Position numbers and translations under genes: made by a program. From Spirogloea muscicola (Eukaryota), in the NCBI GenBank assembly GCA_009602725.1, contig WELB01000026.1, positions 28,454 through 71,461 on the forward strand: DNA of 43,008 nt. The letters are read 5' to 3'. Below, piece by piece: positions 3,718-43,008 of the stretch (position 1 is the first letter of the stretch; every line of letters begins with the position of its first letter). The notes below the pieces were generated by a model, which was not told the DNA's origin, did not search any database, and saw only the letters and a program-made list of their open reading frames with translations.

Positions 3718-4880
3718 TCATGCAGCTAGGGACTTGCTGCCTGGTGGTTTCTTCTTGTCCTTCTTTTCCCGCTTCTTCAGCGCGTCCATATGAGCTCGAA
3801 GCACAGTGGCATATGCGGCTTGAAACCTTGCCTGCTCTTTGGCGGAAATCTGAGACGCAGGGGAGGCAGGCAAGCCAATATCAGAGCTAATTGCAGAATC
3901 CAGTGTAGGCCTAGGGCTCTGTACTGCAGTGCAGTCAAGCTTGGAGCAATTGAGCGGACTTGTGCCAGAACAATGCAACCCTGCTGCGGGTTGTGGTCTG
4001 CCAAGCAAGCCAGCAGGATGGGTAATCTGCAAGAAAGCCTCCATGCCGAGCGCTGACCGAAGGATGAGGAGGAAGCAAACAAATGCAACACATATATATC
4101 CGGTCTGCAATGACCACGAGTACGGCTATCTCCGCCTGATAAAGGCCCCCCCCCCCCGAGCGCACCGGAGGGGCACTTTGTCTGTGCGGCAGCAGAGCCG
4201 ACATAACATTCGGCCTTGAGCAGTGCGGGTGCGTGTGCAAGCGAACTGTACCGACGTGCTGATCTTCTTTTTGCCGTCGGTAGCGCGCACGAGGCACCGG
4301 AAGCTCTCAGCAGGAGCGTCGGCTGCCTCCCGCTCCCTCTTCTTGGGGCTCAGCGTAGCTGCGGGTGCACAAGGGGATGGTGAGGTGGAGGGGTGGCCTC
4401 GTGGGCCCAGGGGAGGCCAAGCTTCAGCCGGTGCCCCGCAAGAGCCCTGCCCCGTCGCTCGAGCGTGCACGCTCGTCGAGGAGGGCAGGTCTGCCGGGCG
4501 TAGGCGTCGGGGGACTAGGGTTCTGGTTCTAGGTTCAGGAGGGCCAGGAATGCCACGGCTGAGGCTGTGGCTGCTGCTACAGCAGAGTGGCAGTGCGCCT
4601 GTCCCTCCCCTCGCGCACTCGGGGGGGTGAGCAAGCCGGGCAGCTGCCGGGCGGGCGAGCGGGCGGAGGAAGGAAGAACGAGGAGAGGGAGCTCACAGCG
4701 CTTGAAGGTGACCCAGACGGTGCCGGCGGCGCGGGTGCGGTCGTAGAGGCGTGTGAGCTCGGTGAGGAAGGGGTCGGGGTCCAGCAGCACCTGCGAAGGG
4801 GGGGGGAGGCGACGTGAGAAGGGCGTGGAGGAAGGCAGGCAGGCTGCGGGGTGGGGCCGCGGGGGGCTGGGGCTGACCAT
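3718..4880 (-). CDS. SRP14: Signal recognition particle 14 kDa protein. Exons 4880-4878 (ATG only), 4790-4697, 4358-4252, 3849-3718
   Basis: Spliced product M-VLLDPDPFLTELTRLYDRTRAAGTVWVTFKRS...CLVRATDGKKKISTS-ISAKEQARFQAAYATVLRAHMDALKKREKK matches SRP14 hallmarks. All introns are GT-AG and in phase. Confidence 0.95.
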
Positions 4881-4944
4881 GGCCGGCGGCGGGGTCGCTG
4901 TGCAGTGCGGCGGACTGAGGAGGGAATGCGAAGGGCGGTGAAGG

Positions 4945-5640
4945 ATGCCGCTTCCAGCGGGGAAGACGTGTGTTCAGTGAGTGATGGAGGGCCTGAGTGG
5001 CCAAGTGCGGCAAGCAAGCACATCTACAGATGTACAGCACCTGCACCGGTGGGGGATGAATTCGCGGCCCTGGCGATGGATGTACACGGGGCTTTCGGCA
5101 GCCGCTGGCTGGATCGCATTCAGCGGCTTGCCCGCCAGGCCATTGACCGGCGGCCGGGTCTGCCAGGGGCGATGCCCGGCTTCAACGCCGCCGGTTCGCT
5201 CGCACAAGTCTTCCGCATGCGCCTGGCCGTATCGCTTCAACGCTCCCTTGCCCACGCCGTCCACACGCGCGCAGGCCGTGCTATGGCCGCCGCCTCTGGG
5301 TCTCGGCGGAGTGCCTCTTTCCCGACCTGGCTTCTCACAGCCCTTGCCCCCATTGGGAGAGCCACTTCTTCTTCTTTCCCTGCAGCGAGCTACTCAGACC
5401 TGACGTTGCTCACTCGTGGGTACTGAGCTTTCCTTTGCATCGTTTCTGTGTTCTGCAGTGTTTTGTAGTGTAGTCCTTTCTCCGGCTCCTCTTTCTTTGG
5501 CTTTGGACATTGTCCATTCTTTTTTGGGCTGGCTTTGCCAGCCCCTCTTCTCTATGGGCGCGCACCTGCTGCTTAGCCGACCCGCTCAGTGACCACGGGA
5601 CAGCACGCTGAGGTCGCCAATGAGGGGGAAGGGCGGCCAC
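4945..5640 (-). mobile_element. 5'-truncated family-D non-LTR retrotransposon 3' end, split by a family-B insertion
   Basis: Minus strand reads ...DLSVLSRGH* then gcgggtcggctaagcagcaggtg|ctgtacatctgtagatgtgcttgc..., collinear with the 3' UTRs after the stops at 18479 (-) and 31473 (+). Confidence 0.8.
5045..5561 (+). mobile_element. 5'-truncated family-B retroelement (RLE C-terminus plus 3' UTR), carrying a nested family-C tip at 5324-5372
   Basis: Translates PVGDEFAALAMDVHGAFG...RMRLAVSLQRS...LLTRGY*. Near-identical to 15644-15940. Flanked by GCACCTGC at 5037-5044 and 5562-5569. Confidence 0.9.
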
Positions 5641-5659
5641 ATCAAGCCAGCACACCACT

Positions 5660-7015
5660 CAGACAAACCTCAGTGCAAAGTATGGGGCACACAAAGCGAA
5701 GTCCTATGCTGGGGGGTCAATGGCAGCTCTGCCAAAGGGGGCGAGGGCTGTGAAAGAACAACAAGCACAAAAAAGAAACGAAGCAGCTACGAAGCACTCA
5801 GTAACCCCTACTATGCAGCCTCAGGTATTTTGTGTGAATGTAAGCTCATCCGAAGGGGGCGAGGGCTGCCGAAGGCTAGCCCAAAGAAGGGGCCGAGGGC
5901 TTTGAATGGCCAGCCCAGACAAACTGGACAAGGTTCAAAGGGCCGAAAGGTGCTGAAGCACACAGCTATCAAGTAGCCACAACAACAAGAATTACAAACT
6001 ATTTGTTCGACGGAACAGGAAGACTTGCAGCCGGAAATGCACTTCCAGTAGAGGGCGATGGCGGTGAGAGGCCAGCCGGCCTGGAAAGCAGCCCTCGCCA
6101 CATCTGGAACTGGAAGAGGTGCTTGTTCTTCAAGACAAGCAAAGTAAGACGATGGCTGTAAGAAGTGAGCTCTTCTGAAGGGGGCGGGGGCTGTGAGAAG
6201 CCGGCCCAGAAGGAATCGACAAGGTCCAAAGGGCTGAAAGGCTTTAAGAAGTCAGCTCTTCCACAGGGGCGGGGGCTGTGGAAAAGTAAGGTTTTCCAAT
6301 GTGAAAGAAGAGCAAGAATGGACGGATTCCGAAGGTGCCGGCAAGCGCCGCAGAACCCCCGCACAATTGAGCAGTACCCAAAGGATGGTCATTTAGATGG
6401 TTACTCAGCCACTGACTTACTATGGAAAAGCTGTTTCTTTCTTTGGTTACCCCCAATAAGCTGGAACCTTGTCCATTCTTTTGGGCTGGCCTCTCCCAGC
6501 CACCAGTTAATCTGGCCGCGCTTGCTTCGAATGGCCAGCCCGAGAAGAATGGACAAGGGCCGGACGGGCCGGACTGCGCAGAGAGGAGCGTGTACGTCGA
6601 GTGTACATGTAGAGTGTGTATGGAGTGATGCACTCGCCTCTGCTTGAACTGTGTATAGGCTTGAATTGGCCTCCCTTTTCATTTCATGCGCCCCGCGCGC
6701 CTTTCTCTCGAGTGGTGGAGGCCACGAGGTACGAAGGAGAGCACTTTCCACTGGTGGGCCACTGCACGTGTCCTGTCCACCAATGGAGGTCGATGCTGAG
6801 CTGCTCCCGGTACGCCTCCGACACTGCTTAGCTCCTAGGACCTTGTCCATTCGTTTGGGCTGGCCTCTCCCAGCCACCAGTTAATCTGGCCGCGCTTGCT
6901 TCTTAGCTCCGTCGCGGCTTAGCTCGTAGTTTGGCCCCTTCGAACCTTGTCAATACTTTTCGGGCTGGCTTCTCACAGCCCTTGCCCCCATTGGGAGAGC
7001 CACTTCTTCTTCTTC
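5660..7015. repeat. Stack of short retroelement 3' termini in both orientations (about 10 pieces), including family A at ~6466-6527 and ~6839-6903, family E at ~6629-6706 and family C at ~6911-7015
   Basis: Repeated ccttgtccattc..tttgggctggc..cagcc..gagc motif. Pieces match 3' UTRs that follow RGY* stops elsewhere in the window (17645-17719, 17883-17958, 21091-21190). HSRGY* on the minus strand near 5800. Confidence 0.8.
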
Positions 7016-7101
7016 TCTACGACACGGCCACATCGCCCCCGGCTCGCGGGGACTCGCGCCCCGCGCGCCCGGAGCTCGGCTCCCGCTCCGGCGGCGGCGC
7101 G

Positions 7102-10318
<3,217 letters not shown>

Positions 10319-10333
<15 letters not shown>

Positions 10334-13205
10334 CCGGCGCCGCCCGACGACGGCGACGGCGGCGCCGGGCTGCGCACCTGCCGCATCTGCCTCGAGCCCG
10401 GCCCCGCGCCCGCCGCCTCGCCCTCCTCCTCCGCGCCCTCGCCCTCCAGCTCCTTCCTGCCCTCCGCCTCGGCCCCCCCCCCGCCGCTCCTCGACGACCA
10501 CCTCGTCTCGCCCTGCGCCTGCTCCGGTGCGTACCATGGCTTCCCGCGCCGCAACTGCATGCGCGACAGGCTTGCAGCCCCCACCCCCTTGCGCACTTCG
10601 TTCCTGCCTGCCGGGCCCACCACCCGCCGAGGCACATGCAAGCCACCAAAGCTGCACGGCACGGCCCCCGCTGGGCTCGCGCCGTTGGGGTGCTGTGCAA
10701 GCTCTCCAGTGGCCCCAGGGGCGAATGCAGGGCTTGTGGGCAGTCCCTCCGCAGCTCCAGCAGCCACGGCTGCCGAAGCTCTCAATGCCCCCCTCCTCTG
10801 CAGGCTGTGCGACTGCTAAGCCTGCGTCCTGCTGCTGTGCCATGCTTTGCAGGAACGCAAGCGCATGTCCACCTGAAGTGCCTGCGCCGGTGGCAGATGG
10901 CTGTGCTGTCCATGCGACATCCGGGTGCTAACCACAGCCCCGCTGTTGTGTAAGTGGCCCCTCGGCTCCAGCAGTCTCATGCAAGAGTCGAACGCTGCAC
11001 GTGCTTTGCCTGATCACGCGCTAACACTTGCATGCTGTCATTACCCTGCTGCAGGTGCTCTGTCTGCAGGCAGGTACACAGTCGTCGCAGGCTTCAGTAC
11101 TGGTCGCTACACAGTCATCGCAGGCTTCAGTACTGGTCGCTGTCTCTCATGACATACCTCGTCATTGTCCCTTGCGCTTCATTGTGTTGCTTTCTCTAAC
11201 TCTTCTTTGTGGCAATTGTGGCGCTCATGCAATCGGTTGCAGCGCTTTGCTTTTGCGCCTCCAAAGCCAGCTTTTGGTCTGCGGATGGTTGGCATATTCG
11301 ACTGCTATGCACGGGAGGTGGCTGCCCTTGCGCTCTTTATGGTAAAGATGATGGAGCATGTCCTCAGCACAATGCTTTTTACTTATGTTGATGAGTGTAT
11401 CAAGCAGGTCAGTATTGACCTGACTTCAGCAACAGGTGTTCTGCTTGAAAGCTTGTCGGTGAGCCACCACGAGGCAGTTGCTGATGGCCCTGGCCTCGAG
11501 GTCTTGTGCTCCTTGGTGGTATCTGGGGGCAGTGTTCCTGCTATGTGGCCTTGGCCTACCACTACAACCTCAGGCCATTGCTGCTTCTTCAGCCTCTACC
11601 CCTCCATACAGCCGAGGCATTTGCTTCCCTCAACCTCCCAAGACAAGCAACCCCCCTCCAGTATCTTACAGAGTACAAACCCATTGTCCCCTACTCTCAC
11701 ATCCATCGGCTGATGTCGAGCCTCTGCAACTACTATGCAGAAATCCATGTTGACTGACCACTTCTTCTGGTTGTTATTCGTCATTGTACCACTGAATTGG
11801 CTAAAATGGTATTGGCCATGCTTGATTGAAGCCAAGAACTAGATGTGGATGCTGGGGATGGTCTAGCTGCTGGCGTTGTGCTGGTGGCCTCCCCAAGCAT
11901 GATAGAGCAATTGCCCTCTATGCCTCCGCGATCCAACATATTCTACCAGTCAGTGGTAAGGCAATGAAGAGGAAGCAAGCACAGCTCCTCTTGAACGATT
12001 AGCTGCTGTCTTTCGACACCTTTTCTGAAGCAGAAACATTTGTCAAACTCCTTACATAACCTTGGGTTGGGTCTTTGCCCTGATGACCTTCTCTTTGTCC
12101 ACGTGTGGCAAGGTCCTGCTCTATGAGCACGAAGAGGAAGGAGGTTCACTTGGCATCATTCTCAACAAGCCAATTCAGGTGACTGCTATCTTCTGTATGT
12201 CAGGTCAAGTAGCACCAATGAACAACCTGACTGCGTCATCCAGCAGCCGCTCTTCTTGGCCCTGCCTGTTTTGGCCAGAGATGAATGACAGCATGGGTCC
12301 ATGTGGACAGGGGGTCGACTTGGAGCACAAGAGATTGCCTCCAACTTTGAGACACCCCACGCCAGATGCCAGTGGATTGCTGGGTGCGGGTTGGGGAGGG
12401 CCTGTAGCCCAGCACCAATGGTCACTGCTACATCGCTGCCCCTCCTTGATCTCTCCTTCCCTTCAGTCAGCATCATCCTCAACCTCAAGGAGCGTGCACC
12501 GAGGGAGGTGCTGCGCCTCCCTCTGCAGGTGCCATTGCCAGCGAGCAGATAAAGCCAGGAGACGTGTTGGTTGGCATTCGGCACAGGAGGTTATTCCTGG
12601 CATGTGCCTTGAGATGGACCCCCACCATCTGCCTTTGCACCGCCGCGGCCGCGTACAGCGCTGCAGGTGCTAAGGCTTACTGTGTCACTTGTTATACATA
12701 CAAATCTACTCTCAGGTCATCTGTCATCATACTACTAGGAATAGGTAATCAATGTCGTCGAACTTGTTGTTTGCTGAGCATGAGTAGCTAAGACGGAAGG
12801 AGCCTTTGTGGAGCGCTTTGCTGTCATGCACAGCAGGTACCACAAACTCTGATAACCATCCAGTGTCACTTGCTCTCCAGCCAACAGTTGCTACCTGATA
12901 GGGCAGAGAGTGAGGCTGTGGAAGACTGCGACTGCCCCAGGTGGAGTAAGGGTGATGATGTTGACAGAGGCAGCCAGTTGGACGCGACGGTGGAAGCAGA
13001 GGAGGATGAGCCAGAGTGGGGCGAGCACACGCACCACCTGCTTCTGGGTCGAGCAGGGTGGAAGGCAGGCCAACTAGCAAGGGAGCTCGAGGAGGGCCTG
13101 TGGTCTTTGCACCGCGATGCTGGATCAGTGTTGCTCACCACGCCCCTGACCTCATTGTGGCAGGCTCTCTCTCATGTTCCCCAGGCTAATGATAGCAATT
13201 ATTGA
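10319..13205 (+). CDS. RING-CH (C4HC3) zinc finger + transmembrane segments + DUF179 (AlgH/YqgE-like) module, multi-exon, apparently the 3' part of the CDPK transcript
   Basis: CRICLE...SPCACSG|TQAHVHLKCLRRWQ...V|CSVCRQ. Hydrophobic EVAALALFM|LLMALA...WWYLGAVFLLCGLG. DUF179 motifs GVVLVASP..IFYQSV|VLLYEHEEEGGSLGIILNKP, GGPV and LGRAGWKAGQLARELEEGLW. Some middle exon borders are uncertain. Confidence 0.85.
11075..11140 (+). repeat. Intronic 33-bp tandem duplication (2 copies, 1 mismatch)
   Basis: tacacagtc[g/a]tcgcaggcttcagtactggtcgc occurs twice in tandem. Confidence 0.9.
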
Positions 13206-13897: not shown

Positions 13898-15530
13898 CTA
13901 GCTATCGCCTGTGCGCTCTGGCAAGGGAGGGCGTACTGCAAGATAGATAGCTGGCCCCACAAACGGCAGCAGGGCCAGAGGCAGCCACCATCTGTCACGT
14001 CCAGACCTGTGCCCACAGCCACAAATGCAAGAGCTGCATCAGGCCATGCTTCAATGTGGGGCTCCATCGTAGCTTCAGGGAGTCGGACAGAAACATGCAG
14101 TTCAACACCAACCTCCAGTGAGATAACACTCACTTACCACCGCCGAATGTTCATATCCTGGTACAACCAGAATGGGGCAAATGCGCAGAGGATTACAAAG
14201 TCCAAGGACATTACGTGTATCTGCGCAAAGTAAAGTGAAGTGAGCAGGTGCCTGCAGATCGGTGATTGATAAGGGATCTAAGATAACGGAGGCCTCAATT
14301 GCCGCATGGCTCGCTTCTCGGTGGTTGATGTGCTGTTGCAGCACATGGACAGTGACAGCAAGTGTGCAAGTGAGATCAGTGCCAGGCAAAGGCGGTGCTG
14401 GGATCTGAGTGCCAGTGTCTACTGCTAAGAAAGGGTGGCTTACGAATCGAGACTCGCGGAAGTACTGCGCGTACTCTGCCCAGCTTTCTGGCGCGGCCAA
14501 AGCTGCCCCTACAGACAGCCCAACTGCTCCCAGCAAGGTGGCCTGTAACATGTCACAATCTGCAGCATCAGGTGTCTTGTTGTGCAATGGGACCATATTG
14601 CCAGCTTTCAGGCTGCTCTAGCTAGGAATGTAGGGCTGCTGAGGCAAGGCAGGTGGTAGCGGCACTCATTCCAGCCCCCACATGTACGCCAGGTTGGGTT
14701 GGTAGTGCCAGGAACGAACCAGTGCTGTAATCCTGGAGTTGAGTATCCTGAGTGGCAGCTTACTCCTCTCCTCGGCAGAGGGGAGGGGAGAGCGGGGTGG
14801 GTCCCACAGAGCAAAGTAGGGGAGCAGAGCGAACGCGCCCACCCCAACGGATGTGACCGAGAAAGGCCAGATGGGGATGCCCCCCTCTTTGCTGTAGAGC
14901 GCGACGGTCTCACGGGGAGTGCAGTCGTGAGTCTTTCAGCCTGGAGGGGGCAGGCTTCTCAGTGTCACCCGTTGCACACTCGGAGCTGTCCTGCATCTGC
15001 TCTGAGGCGATTGAATGTGTCAGCGAGAGAAGTAGCAACGCTGCCCTTGCCTGCGGCCCGAGGGGAAGAGGAGCTGCGCATAGATGAGCGGCCAGACTCC
15101 CATGATGTTGAACACGCATAGGAGGACTTGGTTGACGGCGAATCCATCGTCCGCACGCAAGCCCACCAGCTTCTGGACAAAGTAGAAGTCTCGGAACTGG
15201 CGCGTCTCGCCAGCCCACCAGCACACACGGCACCCCCGTGGGGACGTGAGAGAGGCATCGGGCGGCGCTGACGGGCAGGGCCGCTGCCAAGCCCTGGGCC
15301 GCGAGGCGGAGAGCGCAGCTCACGGGTGTCTGGTTGGGAGAGAGGAGGAAGGCGTAGGCCGCAAAGCCCGCCCAGAAGGCCCAGATGCCGGCGCTGTACA
15401 GCAGTGCCCCTCCGTCGCCGCCGCCAGCGCCGCCGCCGCGGGGTGCTGCCGCGGGCGGCGCGCCGGGCNTGGCGGCGGCGGCGGCGGCGGCGGCGGCGCC
15501 GGGCAGAGCCGCGGCGGCGAGGGAGGGCAT
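13898..15530 (-). CDS. Conserved plant/cyanobacterial multi-pass membrane protein (DUF2834-like), probably plastid-targeted, multi-exon
   Basis: Spliced pieces WAGFAAYAFLLSPNQTP|FRDFYFVQKL..VFNIMGVWPLIYAQLLFPSGRS|KEGGIPIWPF..GAFALLPYFALW|..EYAQYFRESRF|IHVMSLDF..APFWLYQDMNIRRW|..WWLPLALLPFVGPAIYLAVRP. Family name is from recall, not from a search. An N at 15469 interrupts exon 1. Confidence 0.8.
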
Positions 15531-15643
15531 GGTTGGGCTCCTTTTCCGATGGGCCCGAGCGGCGCCCAGCTGGGGCTCCGTGGCGGCACCTGCTCCTGGC
15601 TCTGGCCAGGGGTCCCGCTTCCAGGAGCCTAGCGTCTCTGACC

Positions 15644-15940
15644 GCATGCGCCTGGCCGTATCGCTTCAACGCTCCCTTGCCCACGCCGTCCACACGCGAG
15701 CAGGCCGTGCTATGGCCGCCGCCTCTTGGTCTCGGCGGAGCGCCTCTTTCCCTGCAGCGAGCTACTCAGACCTGATGTTGCTCACTCGTGGGTACTGAGC
15801 TTCCCTCTGCATCGTCTCTGTGTTCTGCAGTGTCTTGTAGTGTAGTCCTTTTTCCGGCTCCTCTTTCTTTGGCTTTGGACATCGTCCATTCTTTTTTGAG
15901 CTGGCTTTGCCAGCCCCTCTTCTCTATGGGCGCGCACTTC
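15644..15940 (+). mobile_element. 5'-truncated family-B retroelement with 9-bp TSD
   Basis: RMRLAVSLQRS...LLTRGY* plus a 3' UTR near-identical to 5216-5565. TCTCTGACC at 15635-15643 and 15941-15949. Confidence 0.92.
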
Positions 15941-15960
15941 TCTCTGACCTGAGGCTGCTT

Positions 15961-17110
15961 AAGAGCAAGCGCGGCCAGATTAACTGGTGGCTGGGAGAGG
16001 CCAGCCCAAAAGAATGGACAAGGTCTGAAGGAGTCGGAATGCTAAGGACTGCGACAGCAGTAAGCGAACTCTCAGTAACCTCTCGTCAGTAGATGCAAAT
16101 CTGAGTAGCTAGCAGGCGGAAAGACGTCGCCCTGACGGAAGCCGGAGGCCGCCGCCAGAGCGCGGCCTGCGCGCAAGTGGAACGCAAAAGCTAGGGACCG
16201 CTGCAAAGAGACGGCAAGGCGCATTCGGAAAACTTGGGCGAGGGACCCGGCGACATGGAAGCCAGGCTGCTCGCCCTGCTGCCCGTTGCGGCGGGCCGCT
16301 GCTCGCCGCGCAAGGCGGTCAAGCCATTTGGCGCCAAAGGCGCCGTGTACGTCGACGGCGAGTGGGATAAACTCGTCGCCTACCGGGTGATCCGAGTACT
16401 TGCGCTCCTTTGCGTCGGCCGCCTGGCGGACGGCGTAGCCCGCCTCCTCCGCCGAGCGTGTAGCGCTCCTGGAATCCAAGGAGTCCATTGTGACGACGTC
16501 GGCAATGAGCCGAGGCCCCCCGCCGAGCGCGCTAGCGACGAGATCGGCGCACCGGGTGTGGAGGCGGCCGTCCGCCCCAGCAGTCAGAGGCATGATGCTG
16601 GAGTTCTCCAGCGCCACAGTGTAACCGGCTTCGACAAATATGCCGAACATCGCGTTCCGGAGCAGGTCGTGTGTGCCGGTCCGCTCCCCTCCCCGTGCGC
16701 ATCGGAGCATATGAGCCGCCAGTGACGCCGCGTCCGGGCTGCGCTCGCCGCACTCGCATTGTTGTACTCCACCTAGGCATGGTGGGTGGAGGCCGAGTAG
16801 GCGGTGCACCGCCGTTCGGAATGCGTCGTCCGGCATCCGAAGCACGTCGTGGATTGGCAGAGCAGACAGCCAAGCAGCCGCCCCTGGTGAGGACGCCGAG
16901 AGCAGGCGCGCGCCCCCCCGGAGGTTAGCTGGAGGCAAAAGCCCCAGCGCCGTGGAGAAAGACGCCGCATCTACCTCCGCCATGCAGCGAGCTTGGGCCC
17001 GCAGGTCGGCCGTGCGCGCGAGGAGAGCGAACGGGACGGCCCGTGGCACCAGGGCGGGGTGATCCGCAAGCAGCAGCTCATCCCGGGCTGAGCGGAGAGC
17101 CGTCTGGAAT
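15961..17110 (-). mobile_element. Family-A retroelement 3' portion with an open CCHC + RLE endonuclease frame (16072-17049)
   Basis: AWLSALP, CECG..HMLRC, HDLLRN, RCADLV, IADVV, KERKY, PLAVDVHGAFG, LLTRGY*. The 3' UTR matches 17609-17719. Confidence 0.92.
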
Positions 17111-17117
17111 GGCAGCA

Positions 17118-17222
17118 GTGGTTACTGAGAAATCCTCCGTAGCTTCTTTTTGTCTTGTTGTGCTTGTGTTTCTTAGCGCTTCCCCTTGGCCCCCTTCTCG
17201 GACTTGGTTCCTTCCTTCTTTA
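17118..17222 (+). mobile_element. Short retroelement 3' end (family G)
   Basis: gtggttactga (..GY*) followed by a pyrimidine-rich UTR resembling the minus-strand piece at ~5740-5810. Confidence 0.45.
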
Positions 17223-17234
17223 CGGCTTAAAATG

Positions 17235-17963
17235 GTCCTCCCTCATCCAGCATCTGGCCCGGCTGGTTGATGCGCGTCGTAAAAGTCGGGGGGGCAGCTT
17301 GGGCCACTCCAGCATTCCACAGGCCTTAATTGCATATTATAGAATGCGGCTCTCGCTTTGTTTGCTGCGCTCGCAAGCCTTGGCTCTTCCGCGACGAGCA
17401 GCAATGCGAGCAGCCTGGCTTCCATGTCGCCGGGTCCCTCGCCCAAGTTTACCGGATGCGCCTGGCCGTCTCTTTGCAGCGGTCCCTAGCTTTTGCGGTC
17501 CACTTGCGCGCAGGCCGCGCTCTGGCGGCGGCCTCCGCCTTCCGTCAGGGCGACGTCTTTCCGCCTGCTAGCTACTCAGATTTGCATCTACTGACGAGAG
17601 GTTACTGAGAGTTCGCTTACTGCTGTCTCAGTCCTTAGCACTCCGACTCCTTCAGACCTTGTCCATTCTTTTGGGCTGGCCTCTCCCAGCCACCAGTTAA
17701 TCTGGCCGCGCTTGCTCTTCATCAACGTGCAGGGCGCGCTCTAAGTCGGGCCTCCGGCTTTCGTGGCGGCGCTCCAGCTCCCCAAGTTAGCTTGTCCGAT
17801 TTGTTTGTGCTCTCCCGTGGGTACTAATGTCACCTTAGGCACCTTAGTTTAGGTCTCTATATTATGTAGCCTTGTTTAGTTTGCACTCGCCTCTGCTTGA
17901 ACTGTGTATCGGCTTGAATTGGCCTCCCTTTTCATTTCATGCGCCCCGCGCGCCTTTCCTTCC
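17235..17963 (+). mobile_element. Family-E retroelement 3' end interrupted by a family-A copy (17390-17713)
   Basis: Removing the insert and one GCTCTTC copy restores YYRMRLSLCLLRSQALAL|HQRAGRALSRASGF...SDLFVLSRGY*. UTR matches 6629-6706. Confidence 0.88.
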
Positions 17964-17964
17964 T

Positions 17965-18360
17965 TTGGGCTGGCTTTTCCAGCCCCCTATCCTCAATTGG
18001 CGAGCCGGGATGGGCCCCGGCCCCCGAGCGCCGGCAGGCGCCTCCTCCTCCTCTGGCCTGGCCACTCACAGCCATCGCCCTCAACTGGAACACAAAGACG
18101 CTTCCAGGAGACGCTTCTCGGGGAGATTAGTGTCCCCCTTAGCCAGCTCATCACCCAGTCAACAGGACATCTGTCAGGCCAGAATTGGCCTACCTTCCAA
18201 TTTCATGCGCACCGCGCGCCTTCTCTCTCTTTCCAGGAGAGGGCGGTGGCTGTGAGAAGGAGAGGCCAGCCCAGAAATAAGAATGAAGCACTACTGGAAG
18301 AGTCGTCCTTCCTCCAAAGAAAGTGGCTCGGCTTAAAGGGGCCGAGGGCTGTAAAAGAGA
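17965..18360. repeat. Cluster of short retroelement 3' terminal motifs, both strands
   Basis: gggctggcttttccagccc (17967), ggccactcacagccatcgccc (18060), E-like gaattggcc..catgcgc (18182), and minus-strand gggctggcctctc (~18260-18272). Confidence 0.65.
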
Positions 18361-18361
18361 G

Positions 18362-20705: not shown

Positions 20706-20734
20706 CCTATGCAACCTTTGATGCAGGCATCCTG

Positions 20735-20960: not shown

Positions 20961-20979
20961 CGGCGCGTTGCCTTTCCAG

Positions 20980-21238: not shown

Positions 21239-21242
21239 TCAT

Positions 21243-25953: not shown

Positions 25954-27114
25954 GTGAGTGGAGGCGAAGGTCTTTTTCAGGTGAAGGGCTCTGACGCACT
26001 CCGTTGGCCCTAGGGGCCCTTGTAGACAGGGAGAGAGCTAGTGGAGAACGGCAGAGCATCCTTGAGGTCTTGCGGCTGGCAATTGGCAAAGAACCCTCCC
26101 TTGGGTTGGCGCATCTCCCTGGGCCAGCGTGTCACAATCTTGGCTACTGACCAGGGAAGGTGCTGCGGTCCTTGGAAGCTTTCGCTGATCTCAGCGAGCT
26201 TCCCCTGTTTATCTTCTTGATGGTGCTTCTCCTTCGTCTTGTATGGCCTGGACCCCTCTGCAGCCATAAGTGCCGTCGGCTGTTGAAGCTTTACTATACC
26301 TTTGCCAATATGGCTTGTGCTGCCCCAGCACTCCTCCATAATACAAGCCCAATTGCTGCTGTTATCATTGTCACCCCCCAGCGCACACGCCCCCAGCCTG
26401 TGGCCCACCATTGCGCGTAGGGAGGTGCCACTTCTCAGCTGCAGGCCCTGAGAGTGGGGTAAAGAGGAGCTGTGGGCATGGTGAATCAAGTAGGTCATTG
26501 AAGGACAAGGCAGCCTTTCTCCACAGTTGACCTTCATAACTCAAGGCGATACTCAACAGACGTTCTTTGGGTCGTCTGAGGTACTGGTAGGTCGCCAGAG
26601 AAAACAGATGGGAGCAATAGCACTTCTTGGGGCCTGCGGTCTTTGTGTCAGCTGGCGAATGATTGAGGGTGAGGGAAGAGGGTGGCATTAATGGGCTCGT
26701 CATGCACCTTGCATTCCAAACCTCAGTGAAACTGGGGCCTTGTTGAGGGGAAGTCGAGAGAAAGGAAATTTCGTGTATTTGAAAGGATGGTGTAAATGCT
26801 GACGCTTGGACACTCTAATGAAGCTGTACTTAGCGCAGACAGGGTAGGCAGACAGACTGTCCCTGCCCAGAAAAAGTAGAGAGGGGGGGATTGCTGGAAT
26901 CTGGGATCGTCTGAAAACCCCATTGCAAAGTTGCAAAGATGGGTAAAGGATACTTCACGACCCGAGCCGGAGGCCAGGACGGGTGCTCCGTGCCAATTTG
27001 TCTGCGAGAAGTAGTGAGTGCACTTGCTTGCGAAGGAGTGTGGCAGCAAGAGGCAGACCAGGAGGGAGGCAAAGTCAGGCCAGCAGCGGTGGCAGAACGG
27101 GGCCTCGTCCAAGC

Positions 27115-27765
27115 GAGAGCAAGAAGTGAGCTTCTTCCAAAGGTGGCGGAGGCTGTGAATGAAGAAGTGGCTCTCCCAATGGGGGCAAGGGCTGTGAGAA
27201 GCCAGCCCGAAAAGAATTGACAAGGTTCGAAGGGGCCAAAGTACGAGCTAAGCAGCGACTGCGGGGCCTGAAGAGGCTATGGCAGAACGGGGGAGGATGG
27301 ACCGCTTAGTAGTTACGAGTGAGGAGCCTCACATCCGACAGACTAGCTGCCGGTAAGAAGCAAGCGCGGCCAGATGAACTGGTGGCTGCCGGTAAACTAT
27401 CCCCCTGACGAAAGCCGGAGGCCAATGTGAATGGCCAGCCCAGAAAGAACGGACAAGGTCCAAACTCAACACGAGAGGGCTGCCAGTCCATGCCTATCAC
27501 CGCTGCAATCGCCAGAATCGCGAGGAGCTGGCAGCGAGTTCACAAGTGCCTGGCACCGTCCGGCCTCCCACCACCCCCTTCTTCAGAGAAAGAAGCGGCT
27601 CTCCCAATGGGGGCAAGGGCTGTGAGAAGCCAGCCCGAAAAGTATTGACAAGGTTCGAAGGGGCCAAACCACGAGCTAAGCAGCGACTGTGGGGCCTGAA
27701 GAGGCTATGGCAAAAGGGGGGAGGATGGACCACTCCGTAGTTACGAGTAAGGAGCCTCACATCTT
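27115..27765 (-). mobile_element. Two family-C 3' ends (27160-27350, 27588-27765) plus additional terminal fragments
   Basis: DVRLLTRNY followed by the same ~150-bp UTR in both copies. A-like fragments at 27355-27430. Confidence 0.88.
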
Positions 27766-27769
27766 CAGA

Positions 27770-30500
27770 GAGCTGGCATTGGGCTGCCACAGTGGACCTC
27801 ACCCCCCTTCTCATCCCTGACGGCCTTCGAAGTCTACGCCACATTTCCAGATGGGCACGTCTTGAGTGCACCAAGGTTCTTACGCCTTACCTCGCACGCA
27901 TCGAAGCGGGACGCTATGGACGAGGCGGCCTGGGCGTTTTACATGCTTTTTCCCAAGCTTGTTCTTGGCCATCTGTCCTCCTTCGGCGTCAGTGGCCGCA
28001 AGCCTTTCCAGGACAGACTGGCTGCATTTACAAGTGGAGAATGGGAGGAGTTGGCTCAGCAGCGTGCAGCAGCTGCTCGGGTCGCGCTCTCACAGCGGCG
28101 GGCGCGCAATGGATCAGTCAATCAGCCCTCTCAACAGTCCAGAGCTGGCAATCTAGCGCGCACAAGACGCTTTGGCAGGGCAGGAGAACTTTCTCGGGCC
28201 GCTCAGGCCCTTTGCCCTGACCCCCTGGCTACTACCAACGACGCCACGGAGGCTATCCTGCGTCAGCTCCACCCCCCTCCACAACATCCCCTCGAGCCCT
28301 GGGCTGGCGAGCTCCCCAGTCCTCTTGACCTGTCGGCAGAAGTGCTAAGTGTGGCCCTGACCAAAGCCCCCCGGATGGTGTCTGGAGGCACTTCTGGATG
28401 GCTCTTTGAGCACCTACAGGACCTTTTCCTTGACGGGGATGAGAGGAGGTTCTCCCTGTTCCTGTCCACCTGCCGGCACATGGCCAGGGCTGCCATTCCA
28501 CCACGCATTGCCGACGCCTTAAATTCCAGCCACCCGCTGGCCCTTCGTCCACGGCATTCGCGCTGCTCTCGGACTGGATATCAGTAACGCCTTCAACACA
28601 GTGGAGCGCATCGTCATCATGGAGGAGCTGCGCAACCACTTCCCTTTTTCCTCATGGCCTATGGCCGCCCAGGGCGGCTGCTGTGGCAAGCCGGAGAGTC
28701 GTGGAAGACGCTGTGGTCATCTTCTGGCACACGCCAGGGGGATCCCCTTAGCCCAATCCTTTTTGCCTCGGCACATTGTCGGGCTATACGGCGCACCCAG
28801 ATGCAACACCCAGACCTCCTCTTCCCCTCCTACGCCGATGATACACACATCATTGGACCTCCAGCTGAAGTCACGGCGGCTTACCCCTTACTCGTTCGTG
28901 AACTGGACCTGATGGGCCTGCGGGTTTGCCCGTCCAAGAGCGTGGCATGGTCCCCACGCGGTCTCCCCGCCAACCTTCAGCTCCCCCACGGCTGCCAGAC
29001 CCCTGCCAATGAGCTGGCCATCCTCAAGGTCCCCCTTGGCACACCAGTTCACAGGGTGGTGGACTTGCGGGAACGCCTCAAAAACACCTCGCCCCCCTCC
29101 CTTCCCTTCCCCTCCTTGGGGACACACAGCTGGCGTTGGCCATTCTCACCCGCTGCATTGGCCAATGGGCATGCTACCTGCAACGGACAGTCGCCCCAAT
29201 GGGCATGGTGGGCGAGCTCTACAAGGAATTCGACAAACTCCCTGCTGCAGTCCCTGGCATCCCTTCTACAATCTTCCTCTTTCCCCTCCGCTTCTGCCCT
29301 CCAGGCTTCCCTCCCCACTCGCATGGGCGGCCTTGGCTGCCGGTCGTTGGAGCAGACATCGCAAGCAGCCTTCCTGGGCCTGCTGGACCAGATCGCCTCT
29401 ATGCTTCCCATGCGCTTCCCTTGCCTCCACAATCCCGCAATTTGGAGGAAGGCTCCTTCCCCTCCCAAGCGGATCTGAGGAGCATCTCTGACTCGGCAAT
29501 CGGCTCTTTCCCCTCTATACAACCCCTACTCACGCCATTCTCCGCCCTCGCCCAAGCTTCAGATAGAGGGGCACAATCCAGACTGGTTCCGGCAGTGGAA
29601 GATGAGCGCCGCAGAAGCTTGAAGAGGCTGCCAGAGATTCACAACAATCCAAGGAGCCTGGCAAGACTTACTTCCCTCGCCACACCTGGAGCCACAGACT
29701 GGATCACCTCACACGCCCTGGCCAGCGCCTTCAGCATCAGCTCCGAGGCCTTTCGGACGTTGCTTCAACTCCTCCTCGGCCTCCCACCTAAATGCCTGAC
29801 TGGGGTGCGCCAGTGTGAGTGCGGCTTCCGTGCAGAGGGTGCTGAGCTCGCCACTCACATCCTGCGATGCCCTACTGGACCAGAAGTGGTGGGCATCCAC
29901 AACCTCCTCCGTGATGCCCTGGCGGGTTTGATGCGCGACGACGGGTACCATGCGGTCGTGGAAGTGAACAACATCATGCCTATCACCACGGATGCCCAGG
30001 GACGTCATCATTGCCGCACACTTGACATTGTGGGCGTGCAACCTGGTGGAGGACCCCGGGCCTTGGTCGATGTTGTGGTTACGGAGGCCTATAATAGTCC
30101 AGCATCGACACACATCGCTGGCCACGCAGTGGGCAGTGCTGAACAAAGAAAGTTGCAGCACTACTCCAGTTATCCCCAATGTGATCAGCTCCTGCCACGG
30201 CAATCGACATCTTTGGCTGCTTAGGTCCTCGTTTCCTTACTCTCCTTCAAAACATAGCCAATCTAGGCTACACACGACGTGCAGATGTGTTTCCGGCTGA
30301 GATGGGCCTGCCAGCTGCATATCTGTCATTCTTGCAACGACGAGTTTCGGCCTTTTTGCAGCGTGCTCAGGCTAATGCTTTGCACCAGAAAGCTGGGCGA
30401 GCTCTAGTTGGTGGCAGAAGGGCTTCGTATCTGCCATCTAGTATTCAGGCATCGGTTAACGACCTTCATGTTTTGACTCGTGGTTACTGAGCGGGTCAAT
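27770..30500 (+). mobile_element. Longest non-LTR retrotransposon copy (family D, CRE-like RLE clade), degenerate
   Basis: N-terminal FPKLVL, GELSRAAQAL, LRQLHP, SGGTSGWLFEHL. RT motifs LDISNAFN, GTRQGDPLSP, SYADD (28831-28842), LPTRMGGLG. CECG..HILRC. RLE motifs HNLLRD, RTLDIV, VDVVV, RKLQHY. Ends VLTRGY*. Has a deletion near 28545 and several frameshifts. Confidence 0.94.
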
Positions 30501-30584
30501 CTACTGTAGGTTATGTAGGTCTTAAGATGTGGTTGCCTTTGTACGTGGCCATTTGGCCTTCCGTTTGTTTCATATACACGAAAT

Positions 30585-30945
30585 TCGCCTGACGAAAGGC
30601 AGAGGCTGCAGCGAGAGCACGGCCAGCCCGCAGGTGCAAGGCGTGGGCCATGGACCGCTGAAGGGAAATGGACAAGCGCATGCGGTAGACCTGTAAGAGG
30701 CCAGCCCAGGAAAGTGAATGAACAAAGTTCGAAGAGGCCAGAGAAAGCTCTAGAGCACACAGTGCATCAAGTAGCCACGAAGCACTCACTAACCTCTTTT
30801 GAATAGCCGCAGGTCCGAGAAAGTAGTCTCCGGGTAGCGTGTCCCCTGGCCAGAGCCAGAGGCTGCAGCCAAGAAGCCAGAAAGCCAGAAGGAATGGACA
30901 AGATCCAAAGGGCCGATGGGCGCCAAAACCACACAGCTATGCTAT
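30585..30945 (-). mobile_element. Fragments of A-like coding end and family-F 3' UTRs
   Basis: VYRMRLSISLQRSMAHALHLRAGRALAAASAFRQ. gtggctacttgat..tgtgtgc..gggctggcc is shared with 5905-5980 (-). Confidence 0.8.
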
Positions 30946-31585
30946 GTGAGCAATGTAATGCCCATCAGCACGGATTCTCAGGGACGCCAGCACCGTCGCA
31001 CCCTGGACATTGTGGGTGTGCAACCTGGCGGAGGCCCACGGGCCTTGGTTGACGTGGTTGTGACAGAAGCGTACAAGAGTTCAGCATCGACTCATACTGC
31101 TGGCCACGCAGTGGGTGGTGCAGAGCAGAGAAAGCTCCTACACTACTCTGACTACCCCCGCAGTGATCACCTCCTACCAGCCGCACTTGACACTTTCGGC
31201 TGCATGGGTCCTCGCTTTCATACCCTACTTGAAAATATTGCAAGTCTAGCATATGCTCGACGTGAGGATATGCTTCCAGCACAGATGGGCATGCCGGCAG
31301 CCTACTTGTCATTTTTGCGACGTCGAGTGTCAGCAAATCTGCAGCGAGCTCAGGCTCATGCGTTGCATCAAAATGCTGGTCGAGCCTTAGTTGTTGGCAC
31401 AAGAGCTTGTCGATTGCCTTCCAGTATTCGGGCATCAGTTAGCGACCTCTATGTGCCGACTCGTGGTTACTGAGCGGGTCAGCTTGGCAGCAGGCGACGT
31501 ACATCTGTCAATGTGCTTGCCTTTGTACCTGGCCACCCAGGCCCTCCATCACTTGATACACACACTCTTCCCTTTATGCAAGAGA
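30945..31585 (+). mobile_element. 5'-truncated family-D copy (RLE C-terminus plus 3' UTR)
   Basis: VSNVMPISTDSQGR..RTLDIV..RKLLHY..LDTFG..YVPTRGY*, highly similar to 18479-19010 (-). Confidence 0.93.
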
Positions 31586-31609
31586 CAACGGCGACTGGGA
31601 TTGCAGGCC

Positions 31610-31835
31610 TTGGCCATTCCTTTGGGCTGGCCTCTCGCAGCACCTGCTGTCAATTTGGCAGAGCTGTTTCTTTGATTGGGAGCTTAGTAACCCCGAGTCA
31701 GCAGCAGCCGCAAGCCGGATGGACTGGCAGCTCGAAACGAGGCACCGCGAGGAGGCCCAGAAACTGGCAGCAGCAGGCAAAGCGCGGCCTGCCCTCTTAA
31801 GTGCGCGCTCTGGGCTGGCTTTCACAGCCACCCCG
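31610..31835. repeat. Terminal motifs (+ at ~31610-31672 and ~31810-31835) around a minus-strand coding-end fragment (~31683-31797)
   Basis: ccattcctttgggctggcctctcgcagc and tgggctggctttcacagcc on the plus strand. Minus strand reads [12 protein letters not shown]...LTRGY*. Confidence 0.7.
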
Positions 31836-31891
31836 CCAGATCCACACACCCGCACTCCGTGAGGCCGACGCCCGCCCCCCCGGCCGCCGCC

Positions 31892-33784
31892 ATGGGCGCC
31901 AAGACGTACCCGCCCGTGTCCGCCGAGTACGCCGCCGCCATCGCCAAGGCCCGCCGCGAGCTCCGCGCCCTCATCGCCGGTGCCCGACCCCCCCCGATCT
32001 GCCCGATCTTGCCGCCCCCGCATCGCTCCCACCGGGCAGTACTGACACCGCCGCGCGCGCGCCCGCCGCAGAGAAGAACTGCGCGCCCATCATGCTGCGC
32101 CTCGCGTGAGGCCCTGCTCTTCGCCAGCCCACATTGCCTAACCCCTGCTGCCAGCCTCCAGCCTCCGCACCTCCACCCCACCGTGCTTGCATCTGCAGCC
32201 CCGCCAGCTACCTGGACGCCCACGCCCCCTCCTCACCTTGCCCCTCCTCTCTGCGGCAGCTGGCACAACTGTGGCACCTACGACGTCAAGACCAACACCG
32301 GCGGCCCCAATGGCACCATCCGCAACAACCACGAGCTCTCGCACCAAGCCAACGCCGGCCTCACCTGGGCTGTGCAGCAGCTCGAGTGCATCCACGACAA
32401 GCTACCAGTCTTGAGCTATGCCGACATCTATCAGCTGGCGGGGGTGGTGGCTGTTGAGGTCACTGGCGGACCCGACATCGACTTCGTCCCGGGCCGCCTA
32501 GTGCGTTTGCTTCCCTAGCTCCCATGGACTGCTTGAATGCCCACTCGAGGGCAGCGACCTTGGCGCCCAAAACCGTCCAGCCTCTACTTTAGCAGCTGGG
32601 GCTGCTTGTATGGCAGAGGACCCCTTGCACCAATGCTCGTACTGCAGATGAAGCTCAGTCTGTCCCTGTGAGCGACAAAATACACACGCGGACCTTGGAC
32701 CTGCTCCTGCAGGACCTCACTGACAGTCCTGACGAAGGACGTCTGCCGAATCCAACCAAAGGTCAGCTGGACCCTTGCTCGGGCAACTCTGTGCAACAGT
32801 CATGGCTGGTGGGGCCAAACGCATGCAGATGGCTTGAGTTTCTGTTTCACTGGAGTGACATGTGTAAGCTTTACCCCCACACTATTATGTTGTCTATGAC
32901 AAATAAACCCTCCCGTCCTTCAGGTGCGGATCACTTGCGGCAAGTCTTTGTCACACAGATGGGCATGAGTGACAAAGACATTGTGGTTCTCTCGGGGGCT
33001 CACACACTGGTAAACTTGCAGAATAGTCTGCGCACACTTGATGAAGTGTTGACTTTACGTGCCAACCGCAGCGCCCTTGCTTTGACTTAGTGACAATAGG
33101 CCCACTGATGCTTGTCAGAGGGCGCAGGTTGCCAGCAGTATTCTCTAATCGCAGATTCATGCAATTTTGTTTTGGCAGGGGCGATGCCACAAGGAGAGGT
33201 CAGGTTTTGAGGGACCTTGGACAGAGAAGCCCCTCAAATTCTCCAACGATTACTTCCAGTTAAGCAGGCTTTGCCTAGCACTTGTCACTAAAGTCTCTGT
33301 CATTGTTCATTCTGCAGTGTCTCACCGTCTGTATCCATAATTCGATACATGATGGCAGGGAGCTCATGGGCGGAGAGAGGGACGGTCTTCTGCAGCTTCC
33401 TTCAGACAAGGTCTTGGTCGAGGACGACAAGTTCCGCCTATATGTTGAGCTTTATGCCAAGGTGCGCGAGTACAGCTGCGGAAGCTTGCATGCCTCTGTA
33501 CACTATGAACGTCAATTTTCTAAAAATCCTGCTGAGGCTGGAGGAGAATGCCATTGCAGGACGAGGATGCCTTCTTTGCTGATTATGCTGAGTCACACAA
33601 GAAGTTGTCGGAACTCGGGTGAGTGATCAGCTTCTGGGCTCTACAAAAAAGTCCTGACCCTCCTGGTGTTGCTGATACTGCACCTATGAACTTGTTTACG
33701 ACCCTCCTCATGTTACTGATAGTTCACCTATAATACGTGAGACTGCTCGGGCACATCTCGTGCAGATTTGGCAAGGAGAATTGA
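31892..33784 (+). CDS. APX: Cytosolic-type ascorbate peroxidase, multi-exon
   Basis: [98 protein letters not shown]. No transit peptide or TM tail. Confidence 0.96.
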
Positions 33785-41000: not shown

Positions 41001-42509
41001 GCTACTTCTCCGGACCAAGCAAGTACACAGCTCAGGCGGCAAGCCCCACCCCTGCCATGGGTTCTGCCTGCTCCTTTGCCGAAGAAAGGAGGCATCTGCT
41101 AACTTCAGCATAGGCATCATGCACAATTCTTACATGAAGGAATATGCTCTCACCTCTGAATGACCACGATGGCCACCGGCCCAGGTAGAGAGACCACGCT
41201 TGGTTCACGCAAGAGGCTCGTTAGGCTGGCCAGCAGGCGACTAGCCTCCTGGCTTAGCTCCGCAGCATCCAGCAGCGGATGCCCCCCAGCAATGGCCTCC
41301 ATGCTGAAGCCCTTCTGGCCTGACGACTCTGCTCTTGAGGATGCAGAATAGATTGGCATCAGGGAGAAACCACACCGTTGTGGTCTTGGAGGCAACCCTG
41401 ACAGCAGAACCATCAAGCCTGATGACCAACCGTCTGTGGCTGACTCGGTCCCTCTGCAAGCTAGCTCAGCAACAACCAGGCCGGAGCCAGGAACAATCAG
41501 CAATCCTAGCAGCTCTGCTAGACCAAGAAACTTGCCGCAAGAGCGAGTGTAGTCACCACTTCTCGGAGAAGCCTTGCCGCCAGAGGGTGATGCTGGACCC
41601 TGTGTGTACAGAAGGATGACCATCTCCACAAACTTGACAGCATGCAGTCGAACGCCGTCATACTCGTGCTGTACAACAACACACAGCACAGTTGATGAGC
41701 CAAGGGACTTCGCAGCCGATATATCCCGCTTGCAGGGCGCAGCGCTGTGACAGAATGAGAAGGGTGTCAGAAGGGGGACTGCGGACCTGCAGGCCAGACT
41801 GGAGGATGGCTTCCTTGAGCCGCAGGACTGCTGACCAGGCCACGGCCAGCTCGGGCGACACAGCGCGCAGCTCGCAGCCCTGCCCGGCGAGCAGCCGCGA
41901 CAAGGGTTTACGAATGCGTGAGATGAATGAATGAATGCGGCTGCTGATATCAAAAGAGCGTGAGAGCAGGTCCTCCGAGGCACAGGTGCGCAGGGCGGAG
42001 AGGGGACGGGGGCGACGGGCGACCTGGCGGGCGACGTGGTGCAGTGTGGTGCGGAAGAGGGCGGTGGAGGCGATGAGGGCGTGCTTGGCGACGGCGTGGG
42101 CGTCCTGGCGCAGCATGGTGGCCAGCACGGGCTCCAGCGCGGGCACGTGCTCCACGTGCTTCACGCCAATCTCCTCAACCATCCTGGAGGGGCGCGGGCG
42201 CGCGTGAGCAGCGGCCCGGGCGGCCGGCGGCGCGCGCGTGCGGCGGCTGCGGGCGCGCGCGGGGGACTCGGAGGCTGACTGGGAGAGGAGCTTGCGGACG
42301 GGCGCGGAGGGGCTGAGGTGGAAGGCGAGGAGCGAGGGCAGGAACTCGGGCAGGAGGCGCGTGTCGTGGCGGTGCACCACCAGCTCCAGCAGCTGGCGCA
42401 GCAGCTCCGCCTGCCGCTCGCCCTCGGGCGCCAGCTGCGCGGCCGTCAGGGCCGCCACGGCGGCGGCGCGGGCGGCGCCGGCGTCCGCGGCGGCGGCGGC
42501 GGCGGCCAT
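35084..42509 (-). CDS. SYMPK: Symplekin (ESP4/Pta1 family polyadenylation scaffold), many exons
   Basis: N-terminal LPEFLPSL..SAPVRKLL..VEEIG, VRLHAVKFVEMVILLYT, GHPLL, SIARQR. C-terminal ACLQQRSIFTQPVLAKALNQL, PLPVLLLRTIIQA, WVGFLKC..PHSFTVLLQ|LPSAQLEEAL. Last exon RSLQAVLGNAAE* is inferred. Confidence 0.9.
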
Positions 42510-42715
42510 GGTGGGGCGCCTCGCCTCCCTCGGGCACAGCCGGGTGCAGCCGGAGTCTCCCGAGCCCTGGAGCAGGCCTGGCTCGGTGCGGCCGAGAGCG
42601 GAGAAGCATCGAGCCGTGTTGCTGGGCAGCGCCGACCCGAGCCAGCGGCCGCACCCCATCGTGTTCCATGGCCGAGTCCCCTTTCTTTTCTTGTTTTCTG
42701 AGTAGCCGGCCGGGA

Positions 42716-42799
42716 AAGAGCAAGCGCGGCCAGATTAACTGGTGGCTGGGAGAGGCCAGCCCAAAAGTATGGACAAGGTCTGAAGGAGTCGGAGTGCTA
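42716..42799 (-). mobile_element. Family-A 3' terminus pointing at the symplekin ATG
   Basis: Near-identical to 15961-16044. Confidence 0.92.
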
Positions 42800-42882
42800 G
42801 CTTCCTTTGGCTTTGGACATTGGGTTCAGTTCTCTTTGGGCTGGCTTTGCTTCTCTATCCATGGCCGAACACTTCCTTCTTC
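42799..42882 (+). mobile_element. B-like 3' terminus pointing at the next gene
   Basis: ctttggctttggacattg...tttgggctggctttgc is shared with 5495-5538. Ends cacttccttcttc. Confidence 0.7.
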
Positions 42883-42908
42883 ATCGCCTCCCCCCGCCCG
42901 TCCCCGCC

Positions 42909-43008
42909 ATGGCGCCCAAGCGCGCCAAGCGGCCCGCCTCCGCCGCCGCCGCAGCCGAGCCCGCCCCCGCTCCTGCCAAGCGCGCCAAGCCCGCGGCCGC
43001 GCCCGCTC
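42909..43008 (+). CDS. 5' start of an unidentified protein (MAPKRAKRPASAAAAAEPAPAPAKRAKP...), possibly nuclear
   Basis: gccATGg context, very GC-rich first-exon composition like the other genes, basic KRAK motifs. Truncated by the window edge. Confidence 0.6.
   Translation, partial: MAPKRAKRPASAAAAAEPAPAPAKRAKPAAAPA

Follow-up and report, generated by a model that had tools for sequence, protein, structure and literature searches.

Most clades of retrotransposons with a restriction-like endonuclease (RLE) are described as targeting multicopy repeats, namely ribosomal DNA, spliced-leader genes and telomeres (PMC4640811), and the CRE, SLACS, CZAR, Cnl1, MoTeR and FoTeR elements are presented as site-specific or as linked to telomeres (PMC12857005, PMC4640811). 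A preference for the starts of genes transcribed by RNA polymerase II (Pol II) is documented for elements with long terminal repeats (LTRs) and for DNA elements, namely Tf1, Mu and P (PMC5371812, PMC7337890, PMC6719617): Tf1 of S. pombe is reported to accumulate in nucleosome-depleted Pol II promoter regions, its LTR carrying a site for Sap1, which also guides insertion (PMC5371812), and maize Mu and Drosophila P are reported as strongly enriched near Pol II starts and nearly absent at gene ends (PMC7337890). Drosophila HeT-A, a non-LTR element, is described as forming telomeric head-to-tail arrays that run strictly in one direction, with a promoter in the 3' untranslated region (UTR) that acts on the downstream element (PMC5537684). 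Here we analyzed a stretch of 43,008 nucleotides from Spirogloea muscicola (contig WELB01000026.1; hereafter the window, whose positions are used throughout), in which non-LTR retrotransposons of the RLE type are piled upstream of the start codons of all visible genes. Our search of the openly accessible literature retrieved no paper that describes a preference of RLE elements for the starts of Pol II genes, or such a pattern in this algal group.

Like the CRE-type group, the window elements carry a reverse transcriptase (RT), behind which come a CCHC knuckle and a nuclease of the PD-(D/E)xK type (PMC12857005); unlike that group as it is described, they lie at the starts of single-copy Pol II genes, and 12 of their target duplications have no sequence in common. 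They resemble Tf1 in position, and its Sap1 site in the LTR is a possible parallel to a hairpin motif in the tails of the window elements, but Tf1 is an LTR element with an integrase whose preference was shown by de novo insertions, whereas the window elements are non-LTR and seen as fixed copies only (PMC5371812). They match Mu and P in their enrichment at starts (7 of 7) and absence from gene ends (0 of 3 convergent gaps), but Mu and P are DNA transposons, described without nested piles of 5'-truncated tails (PMC7337890). With HeT-A they share the non-LTR type and the head-to-tail arrays, but HeT-A is described as one-directional and serving its own kind, whereas the window termini are mixed in direction (17 of 40 mapped termini aim at the nearest ATG, and nested insertions are split 6:6) and lie beside host genes (PMC5537684).

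All counts of location and direction given here refer to fixed insertions in this one window, with element borders and the gap map set by hand. Element-derived DNA lay close upstream of all seven visible start codons, at 26-206 nt from the ATG to the nearest element base (SRP14 58, CDPK 89, the gene starting at 15530 (hereafter the 15530 gene) 26, squalene synthase (SQS) 128, ascorbate-peroxidase-like gene (APX) 59, symplekin 206 and the last gene 28 nt), and this slot was filled by different families at different genes, both as stated in the initial annotation, which had been made from the sequence alone. The distances given there were near the re-measured values, except for the 15530 gene, where 125 bp had been claimed and 26 nt was found. 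The APX value refers to a bare 24-nt motif, the next tail being at 219 nt. Insertions proximal to an ATG occurred in both directions (a co-oriented D at 58 nt, an antisense E at 26 nt and a nested antisense B at ~111 nt).

We built a tail profile from 22 window tails, yielding 30 matches at E<0.1, all 30 of which fell in the four upstream gaps; the best match in gene bodies reached only E=0.76, and the three convergent gaps gave no match at E<=20. Self-blastn and tblastn agreed with this result, as did the earlier claim that convergent gaps and introns are free of such fragments. Across 20 shuffles of the window the top score was 5.1 bits, versus 10.6 bits for the APX motif. Counted by gap, elements were present in four of four upstream gaps and none of three convergent gaps (Fisher p=0.029). 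Element DNA made up 73, 96, 95 and 41% of the four upstream gaps, leaving a non-element remainder of ~1.3 kb out of 14.4 kb of upstream-gap DNA (hand map), and not even a 30-nt tail was found in ~21 kb of intron-rich gene bodies together with the 1.17 kb behind SQS. The location pattern is real and strong. The start codons and elements are listed below; X1 and X3 are DNA contig sets, X5 is a contig set presumed to be RNA, and P0006 is a full-length relative of the elements.

4878-4880, minus strand: SRP14 start codon (Pfam SRP14, E=1e-4)
4939-5627, minus strand: family D 3' piece aimed into SRP14 (9-nt duplication 4930-4938 / 5628-5636)
5046-5565, plus strand: family B piece, antisense, nested in D (8-nt duplication)
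5324-5372: co-oriented C tail nested in B 5046-5565 (empty-site joint 5315-5373 in X1, X3 and X5)
5700-6585, minus strand: stack of short tails towards SRP14 (tail profile)
6466-6526, plus strand: A tail within the hairpin of the last tail of the 5700-6585 stack
6629-6705, plus strand: family F terminus without the hairpin motif (98.7% identity to 17882-17958; contig loose ends behind 6703)
6706-6825, no strand: non-element stretch (TGGGCC match at 6755, CACGTG match at 6765)
6839-7012, plus strand: two tails aimed into CDPK, A at 6839-6901 with a 9-nt duplication and C at 6911-7012
7102-7104, plus strand: CDPK start codon (Pfam Pkinase and EF-hand)
15528-15530, minus strand: start codon of a gene called DUF2834-like in the initial annotation (label unconfirmed)
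15557-18008, plus strand: family E element with a 9-nt duplication, lying antisense to the 15530 gene (subsequently struck by B, A, F and A)
15642-15947, plus strand: family B piece nested in E (8-nt duplication)
15961-17117, minus strand: family A piece, antisense in E, with the terminus formerly placed at 125 bp (CCHC and RLE motifs)
17218-17958, plus strand: family F piece within the tail of E, with a 10-nt duplication (contains A 17391-17719 with a 7-nt duplication)
18368-20700, minus strand: family D copy, RT and RLE frames broken (Pfam RVT_1; tblastn of P0006 E=1e-77)
20705-22384, plus strand: A-like copy aimed into SQS (broken by antisense tails 20975-21085 and 21093-21240)
22513-22515, plus strand: squalene synthase start codon (Pfam SQS_PSY)
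27121-27470, minus strand: tail stack aimed away from APX, no gene found downstream
27475-30575, plus strand: longest family D-like copy, RT and RLE frames broken (6-nt duplication)
27588-27762: antisense C nested in the D-like copy 27475-30575 (10-nt duplication)
30578-30945, minus strand: stack of an A-type open reading frame (ORF) end, an E piece and a tail, aimed away from APX
30946-31575, plus strand: family D 3' piece (5-nt duplication)
31602-31672, plus strand: diverged hairpin tail, 219 nt before the APX ATG (tail profile)
31809-31832, plus strand: bare 24-nt hairpin motif, 59 nt before the APX ATG (E=0.009, 10.6 bits)
31892-31894, plus strand: start codon of the ascorbate-peroxidase-like gene (Pfam peroxidase)
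42507-42509, minus strand: symplekin start codon (Pfam SYMPK_PTA1_N and Symplekin_C)
42716-42799, minus strand: A tail aimed into symplekin (97.6% identity to another A tail)
42800-42880, plus strand: B-like tail, set back to back with the preceding A tail and aimed into the last gene
42909-42911, plus strand: start codon of the last gene, which the window end truncates

By their motifs, the elements are RLE-type non-LTR retrotransposons, an identity already proposed in the initial annotation and borne out by the RT domain and by CCHC and nuclease motifs. Two broken frames matched Pfam RVT_1 at E=6e-6 and E=2e-6, each falling slightly short of the curated cut-off, and P0006 matched RVT_1 at E=4e-17 and aligned along the window copies (tblastn E=1e-77). 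The CCHC knuckle and PD-(D/E)xK nuclease motifs were present in both window frames tested (A at 16072-17121 and D-like at 29013-30224), using a search pattern that failed on three database proteins tested, and their spacing fits the consensus given in PMC12857005 except for a C-to-H spacer of 11-12 residues instead of 7-8. No window copy retains an intact single long ORF; P0006 is one ORF of 1068 amino acids (aa). Copies range from 24 nt to 3 kb and have common 3' ends, most being 5'-truncated and many reduced to 30-90 nt. Target duplications of 5-11 nt flanked 12 of 21 junction pairs with hand-set borders, with further ones besides, and such duplications mark most of the resolvable junctions. 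In the 12 duplications, 61 of 91 bases are pyrimidines on the element sense strand, nine duplications leaning towards pyrimidine and one towards purine; several are not CT-rich. Sequence-specific insertion into a multicopy repeat was not found, as the duplications differ and there is no Rfam or tRNA match anywhere in the window, on which ground a shared RNA-gene target was also rejected.

One peptide motif at the ORF end is common to at least six families. In A, B, C and E the terminal 80 nt are shared and comprise a short hairpin and an end of the CTT type; the termini of D and F differ and gave no match to the tail profile. The hairpin stem is nearly invariant, with compensatory change at 0 of 4 pairs in 16 sequences, and the shared terminus may reflect either a DNA motif or a conserved RNA fold. 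The loop and T-run of the tail hairpin were repeatedly struck by later insertions (6466, 17218, 27162 and 30691, plus contig joints). By their RT motifs, the elements would probably belong to the CRE clade. The 48 homologues of P0006, Closterium proteins included, carried no clade names; P0006 had no PDB match, and an Atlas search returned only unnamed RVT_1 clusters.

The direction pattern is weaker than the location pattern and has one clear exception. The nearest element aims into the gene at six of seven starts (one-sided p=0.0625), one of the six being the bare 24-nt APX motif, so that the co-orientation formerly claimed for all seven starts holds at six and fails at the 15530 gene. The nearest element there is the plus-strand, antisense family E copy 15557-18008, 26 nt from the ATG, which is flanked by a 9-nt duplication (15548-15556 / 18009-18017; chance of such a repeat ~0.9%) and of which 15557-15641 is the ORF end. 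The four pieces of this copy match another E copy in the same order, and the copy at 15557-18008 later received four inserts, namely B, A, F and a further A. The A terminus formerly taken as nearest to this start is one of these later inserts, nested in the antisense E, and the count of seven out of seven arose because the nearest co-oriented terminus was sought, not the nearest element. Within 300 nt, 7 of 8 mapped termini aim at the nearest ATG, a value inflated by geometry since any element in that orientation has its 3' end facing the gene, versus 10 of 32 beyond this distance. At the top level, minus copies lie left of plus copies in 41 of 53 pairs within gaps (permutation p=0.017, from the hand map and with stacks that are non-independent), a polarity that is clean between SRP14 and CDPK and reversed beside the 15530 gene.

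Gene starts are 77% GC and have a CpG observed/expected ratio of 0.94, versus 0.52 in gene bodies and 0.36 in convergent gaps; their sense strands are 49% C and 29% G, and no TATA match was found upstream of any of the seven ATGs. Taking these CpG-rich starts together with the other features observed directly (RT and RLE motifs, 5' truncation, 5-11 nt duplications, nesting order and location), we lean towards the reading that several RLE families piled up upstream of start codons by preferring open, CpG-island-like gene-start DNA over a fixed target sequence. Insertion would proceed by target-primed reverse transcription wherever DNA close to start sites is accessible, CpG-island-like openness being the likeliest cue, and piles would grow as later inserts displaced older ones outward or landed within them. 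Under the target-primed mechanism, CTT-type tail ends would favor pyrimidine-rich top strands, so that the C-rich sense strand of a gene start would tilt inserts gene-ward, and selection would then purge more of the antisense inserts beside a start. The tails would be tolerated passengers, single ones of which may have been co-opted as leader or promoter DNA.

To look beyond the window we used the contig sets and gene models. The region 3300-10000 matched 17,674 X1 and 27,507 X3 contigs, with depth heaped on the tails; neither these counts, which are not a copy number, nor the summed contig depth of 1e5-1.8e6 over tails versus 50-700 over genes was used as one, but the element families are abundant. 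The DNA contigs that continue beyond the B terminus (100 in X1 and 117 in X3) gave a C-rich and GC-rich consensus like the sense strands of gene starts or elements and unlike convergent gaps, and simulation of this flank consensus excluded convergent gaps and antisense flanks and made gene bodies unlikely (8-13%). An ATG in the X1 flank consensus was rejected as evidence of a start codon, since it is similar to the final 20 nt of the B tail itself and does not occur in X3. We retrieved 725 contig joints, and 8 of the 15 best-supported run from a C, B or F terminus straight into a tail of the same direction; head-to-tail stacks are thus common at other loci too. A 27-nt A-tail pattern hit 0 loci in the metagenome contigs scanned. 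Searches of X5 with 3300-10000 and 4500-7400 gave no bridge from a terminus to an ATG among the pieces listed, with bins 4791-4887, 6731-6827 and 7022-7215 uncovered, so that such a junction is neither shown nor excluded; one X5 contig extends 44 letters beyond a C terminus at another locus and names no gene.

The best protein matches to the elements were EukProt gene models, whose identifier prefix is probably that of a zygnematophycean alga. Among 18 element-matching models, 7 merge element pieces with at least 200 non-element residues (P0004, P0005, P0007, P0008, P0009, P0013 and P0020, with AP2 and NAP genes among the fused partners), which shows how element piles corrupt gene models, and the other 11 are mostly element sequence. 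The element piece begins within the first 70 residues in all seven mixed models, four of which also have one at the C-terminus; such models can show only co-oriented pieces and are therefore uninformative on direction. In P0013 and P0009, B and E ORF ends are fused to apparent host gene starts, P0009 having NAP domains.

Several observations weigh against an insertion preference for open gene starts. That these starts are unmethylated, open islands in a methylated genome would follow from CpG counts alone; the flank consensus cannot tell a gene start from an element pile (P=0.06-0.29, piles of both orientations); the nested insertions, 6 co-oriented and 6 antisense (two read by eye), weaken the strand-bias step; and the tails at 27121-27470 and 30578-30945 aim at no detectable gene. 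Moreover, X5 contigs cover 3300-3757, the sole convergent gap that could be inspected, so that convergent gaps may be 3' UTR under selection and targeting would be unneeded to explain their emptiness. Such cover is as expected of 3' UTRs if selection acted by itself, with little insertion preference, on a compact genome that tolerates inserts just in upstream gaps, where old elements would serve as neutral landing ground; the at least 12 insertions nested in older elements and the mixed orientation beyond 300 nt (10 of 32) agree with this. We nevertheless consider selection by itself rather unlikely, as element DNA lies 26-128 nt from the ATG at six of seven genes, where selection should be strongest, and as neither the intron-rich gene bodies (~21 kb) nor the 1.17 kb following SQS contain a tail of even 30 nt.

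The initial annotation had proposed promoter donation; in the version weighed here, the last 80 nt of an element supply the core promoter or leader, co-oriented inserts are harmless or kept, and promoters turn over between families. This would account for the co-orientation at six of seven starts, for the minus-left-of-plus polarity and for the co-oriented tail or tail motif that lies beyond a spacer of 28-128 nt at five of seven genes, with tail and ATG just 28 nt apart at the last gene. It would also suit the hairpin stem, whose invariance without compensatory change may point to a DNA motif rather than an RNA fold, and the persistence of the hairpin motif alone 59 nt before the APX ATG. That motif contains a TGGGCT match, a candidate site II, but TGGGCY occurs 83 times in the window, so that a match means little, and host-type motif matches are also found upstream of the CDPK inserts (in the stretch 6706-6825, the candidate motifs TGGGCC and CACGTG are presumably a site II and a G-box). 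Against promoter donation, an antisense E lies 26 nt from the ATG of the 15530 gene, the distance between motif and ATG varies from ~70 to 250 nt, and no motif is common to all slot-filling families, D and F lacking the hairpin motif although D occupies the SRP14 slot. Since the starts are GC-rich and CpG-island-like and lack a TATA match, promoter information may instead reside in the host's own 5' island. Neither donation nor mimicry of a promoter gains positive support from the window, and we regard promoter donation as improbable. An extended version, in which an RLE radiation targets Pol II starts genome-wide and a conserved 80-nt terminus with a host promoter motif serves at once to maintain expression of the gene and to draw in the following insertion, many housekeeping promoters thus being rebuilt from tails with family turnover, is equally doubtful.

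Self-targeting by sequence, in which priming on CT-rich tracts, chiefly the elements' own hairpin T-run and loop, would let one seed nucleate a head-to-tail stack with chromatin irrelevant, agrees with inserts in or beside older tail hairpins (27162, 6466 and 17218) and with the 8 of 15 best-supported contig joints (out of 725) that enter a same-direction tail, but it is very improbable as a full account, as CT-rich tracts in introns and 3' gaps are unused, so that sequence alone cannot place seeds, nested inserts are split 6:6 in the window, and several target duplications are not CT-rich; it accounts for pile growth, not for pile origin.

The window genes are GC-rich with short introns and comprise FtsH, SRP14, CDPK, RINGv/DUF179, DUF2834-like, squalene synthase, peroxidase, symplekin and a partial last gene. 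Pfam supports every gene label except DUF2834 and the last gene, the RINGv match being weak (E=0.035). The exons of the 15530 gene gave no Pfam match, and its DUF2834 label comes from the initial annotation and is unconfirmed; only the first 100 nt of the last gene precede the window end, and its status as a gene is taken from composition only. Between the symplekin and last-gene start codons there is ~230 nt of non-element DNA, and the A and B-like tails abut at 42799-42800 without a spacer. The ATGs at 15530 and 22513 were linked to their gene bodies across single N positions (15469, 61 nt past the former, and 22542, 29 nt past the latter), both in GC-rich first exons. The squalene synthase start appears short near 22542, where sequence may be missing.

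At 10020-10340, the fourth EF-hand exon of CDPK continues in frame into the RINGv/DUF179 gene, close to a T run of 120 nt, an N and a brief duplication; this fusion is likely an assembly join, the alternative being a real deletion, and the join conceals one gene start from the location test. Contigs over CDPK (7880-10000) show 11-15 differences per 200-400 nt in both DNA and RNA-like runs, which suggests that the gene exists in duplicated copies; with such redundancy, selection on inserts in promoters could be weaker. As tails aim at 25953-27120, we weighed whether an eighth gene lies there on the minus strand and for now reject it (no Pfam match in three frames, a 176-aa frame without homologue, CpG observed/expected 0.46); the two stacks of minus-strand tails that aim into this stretch may reflect a lost gene, a non-coding transcript or chance.

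If true, an RLE group that moved to open gene starts would have reached, independently and by one more route, a niche known for LTR and DNA elements, in an alga that is likely closely related to land plants. The tails find matches in thousands of contigs, and the inserts of duplicated gene copies may differ. A standing question would become testable in a single genome: whether inserts at start sites persist because they do no harm, or because they mend the damage that they cause.

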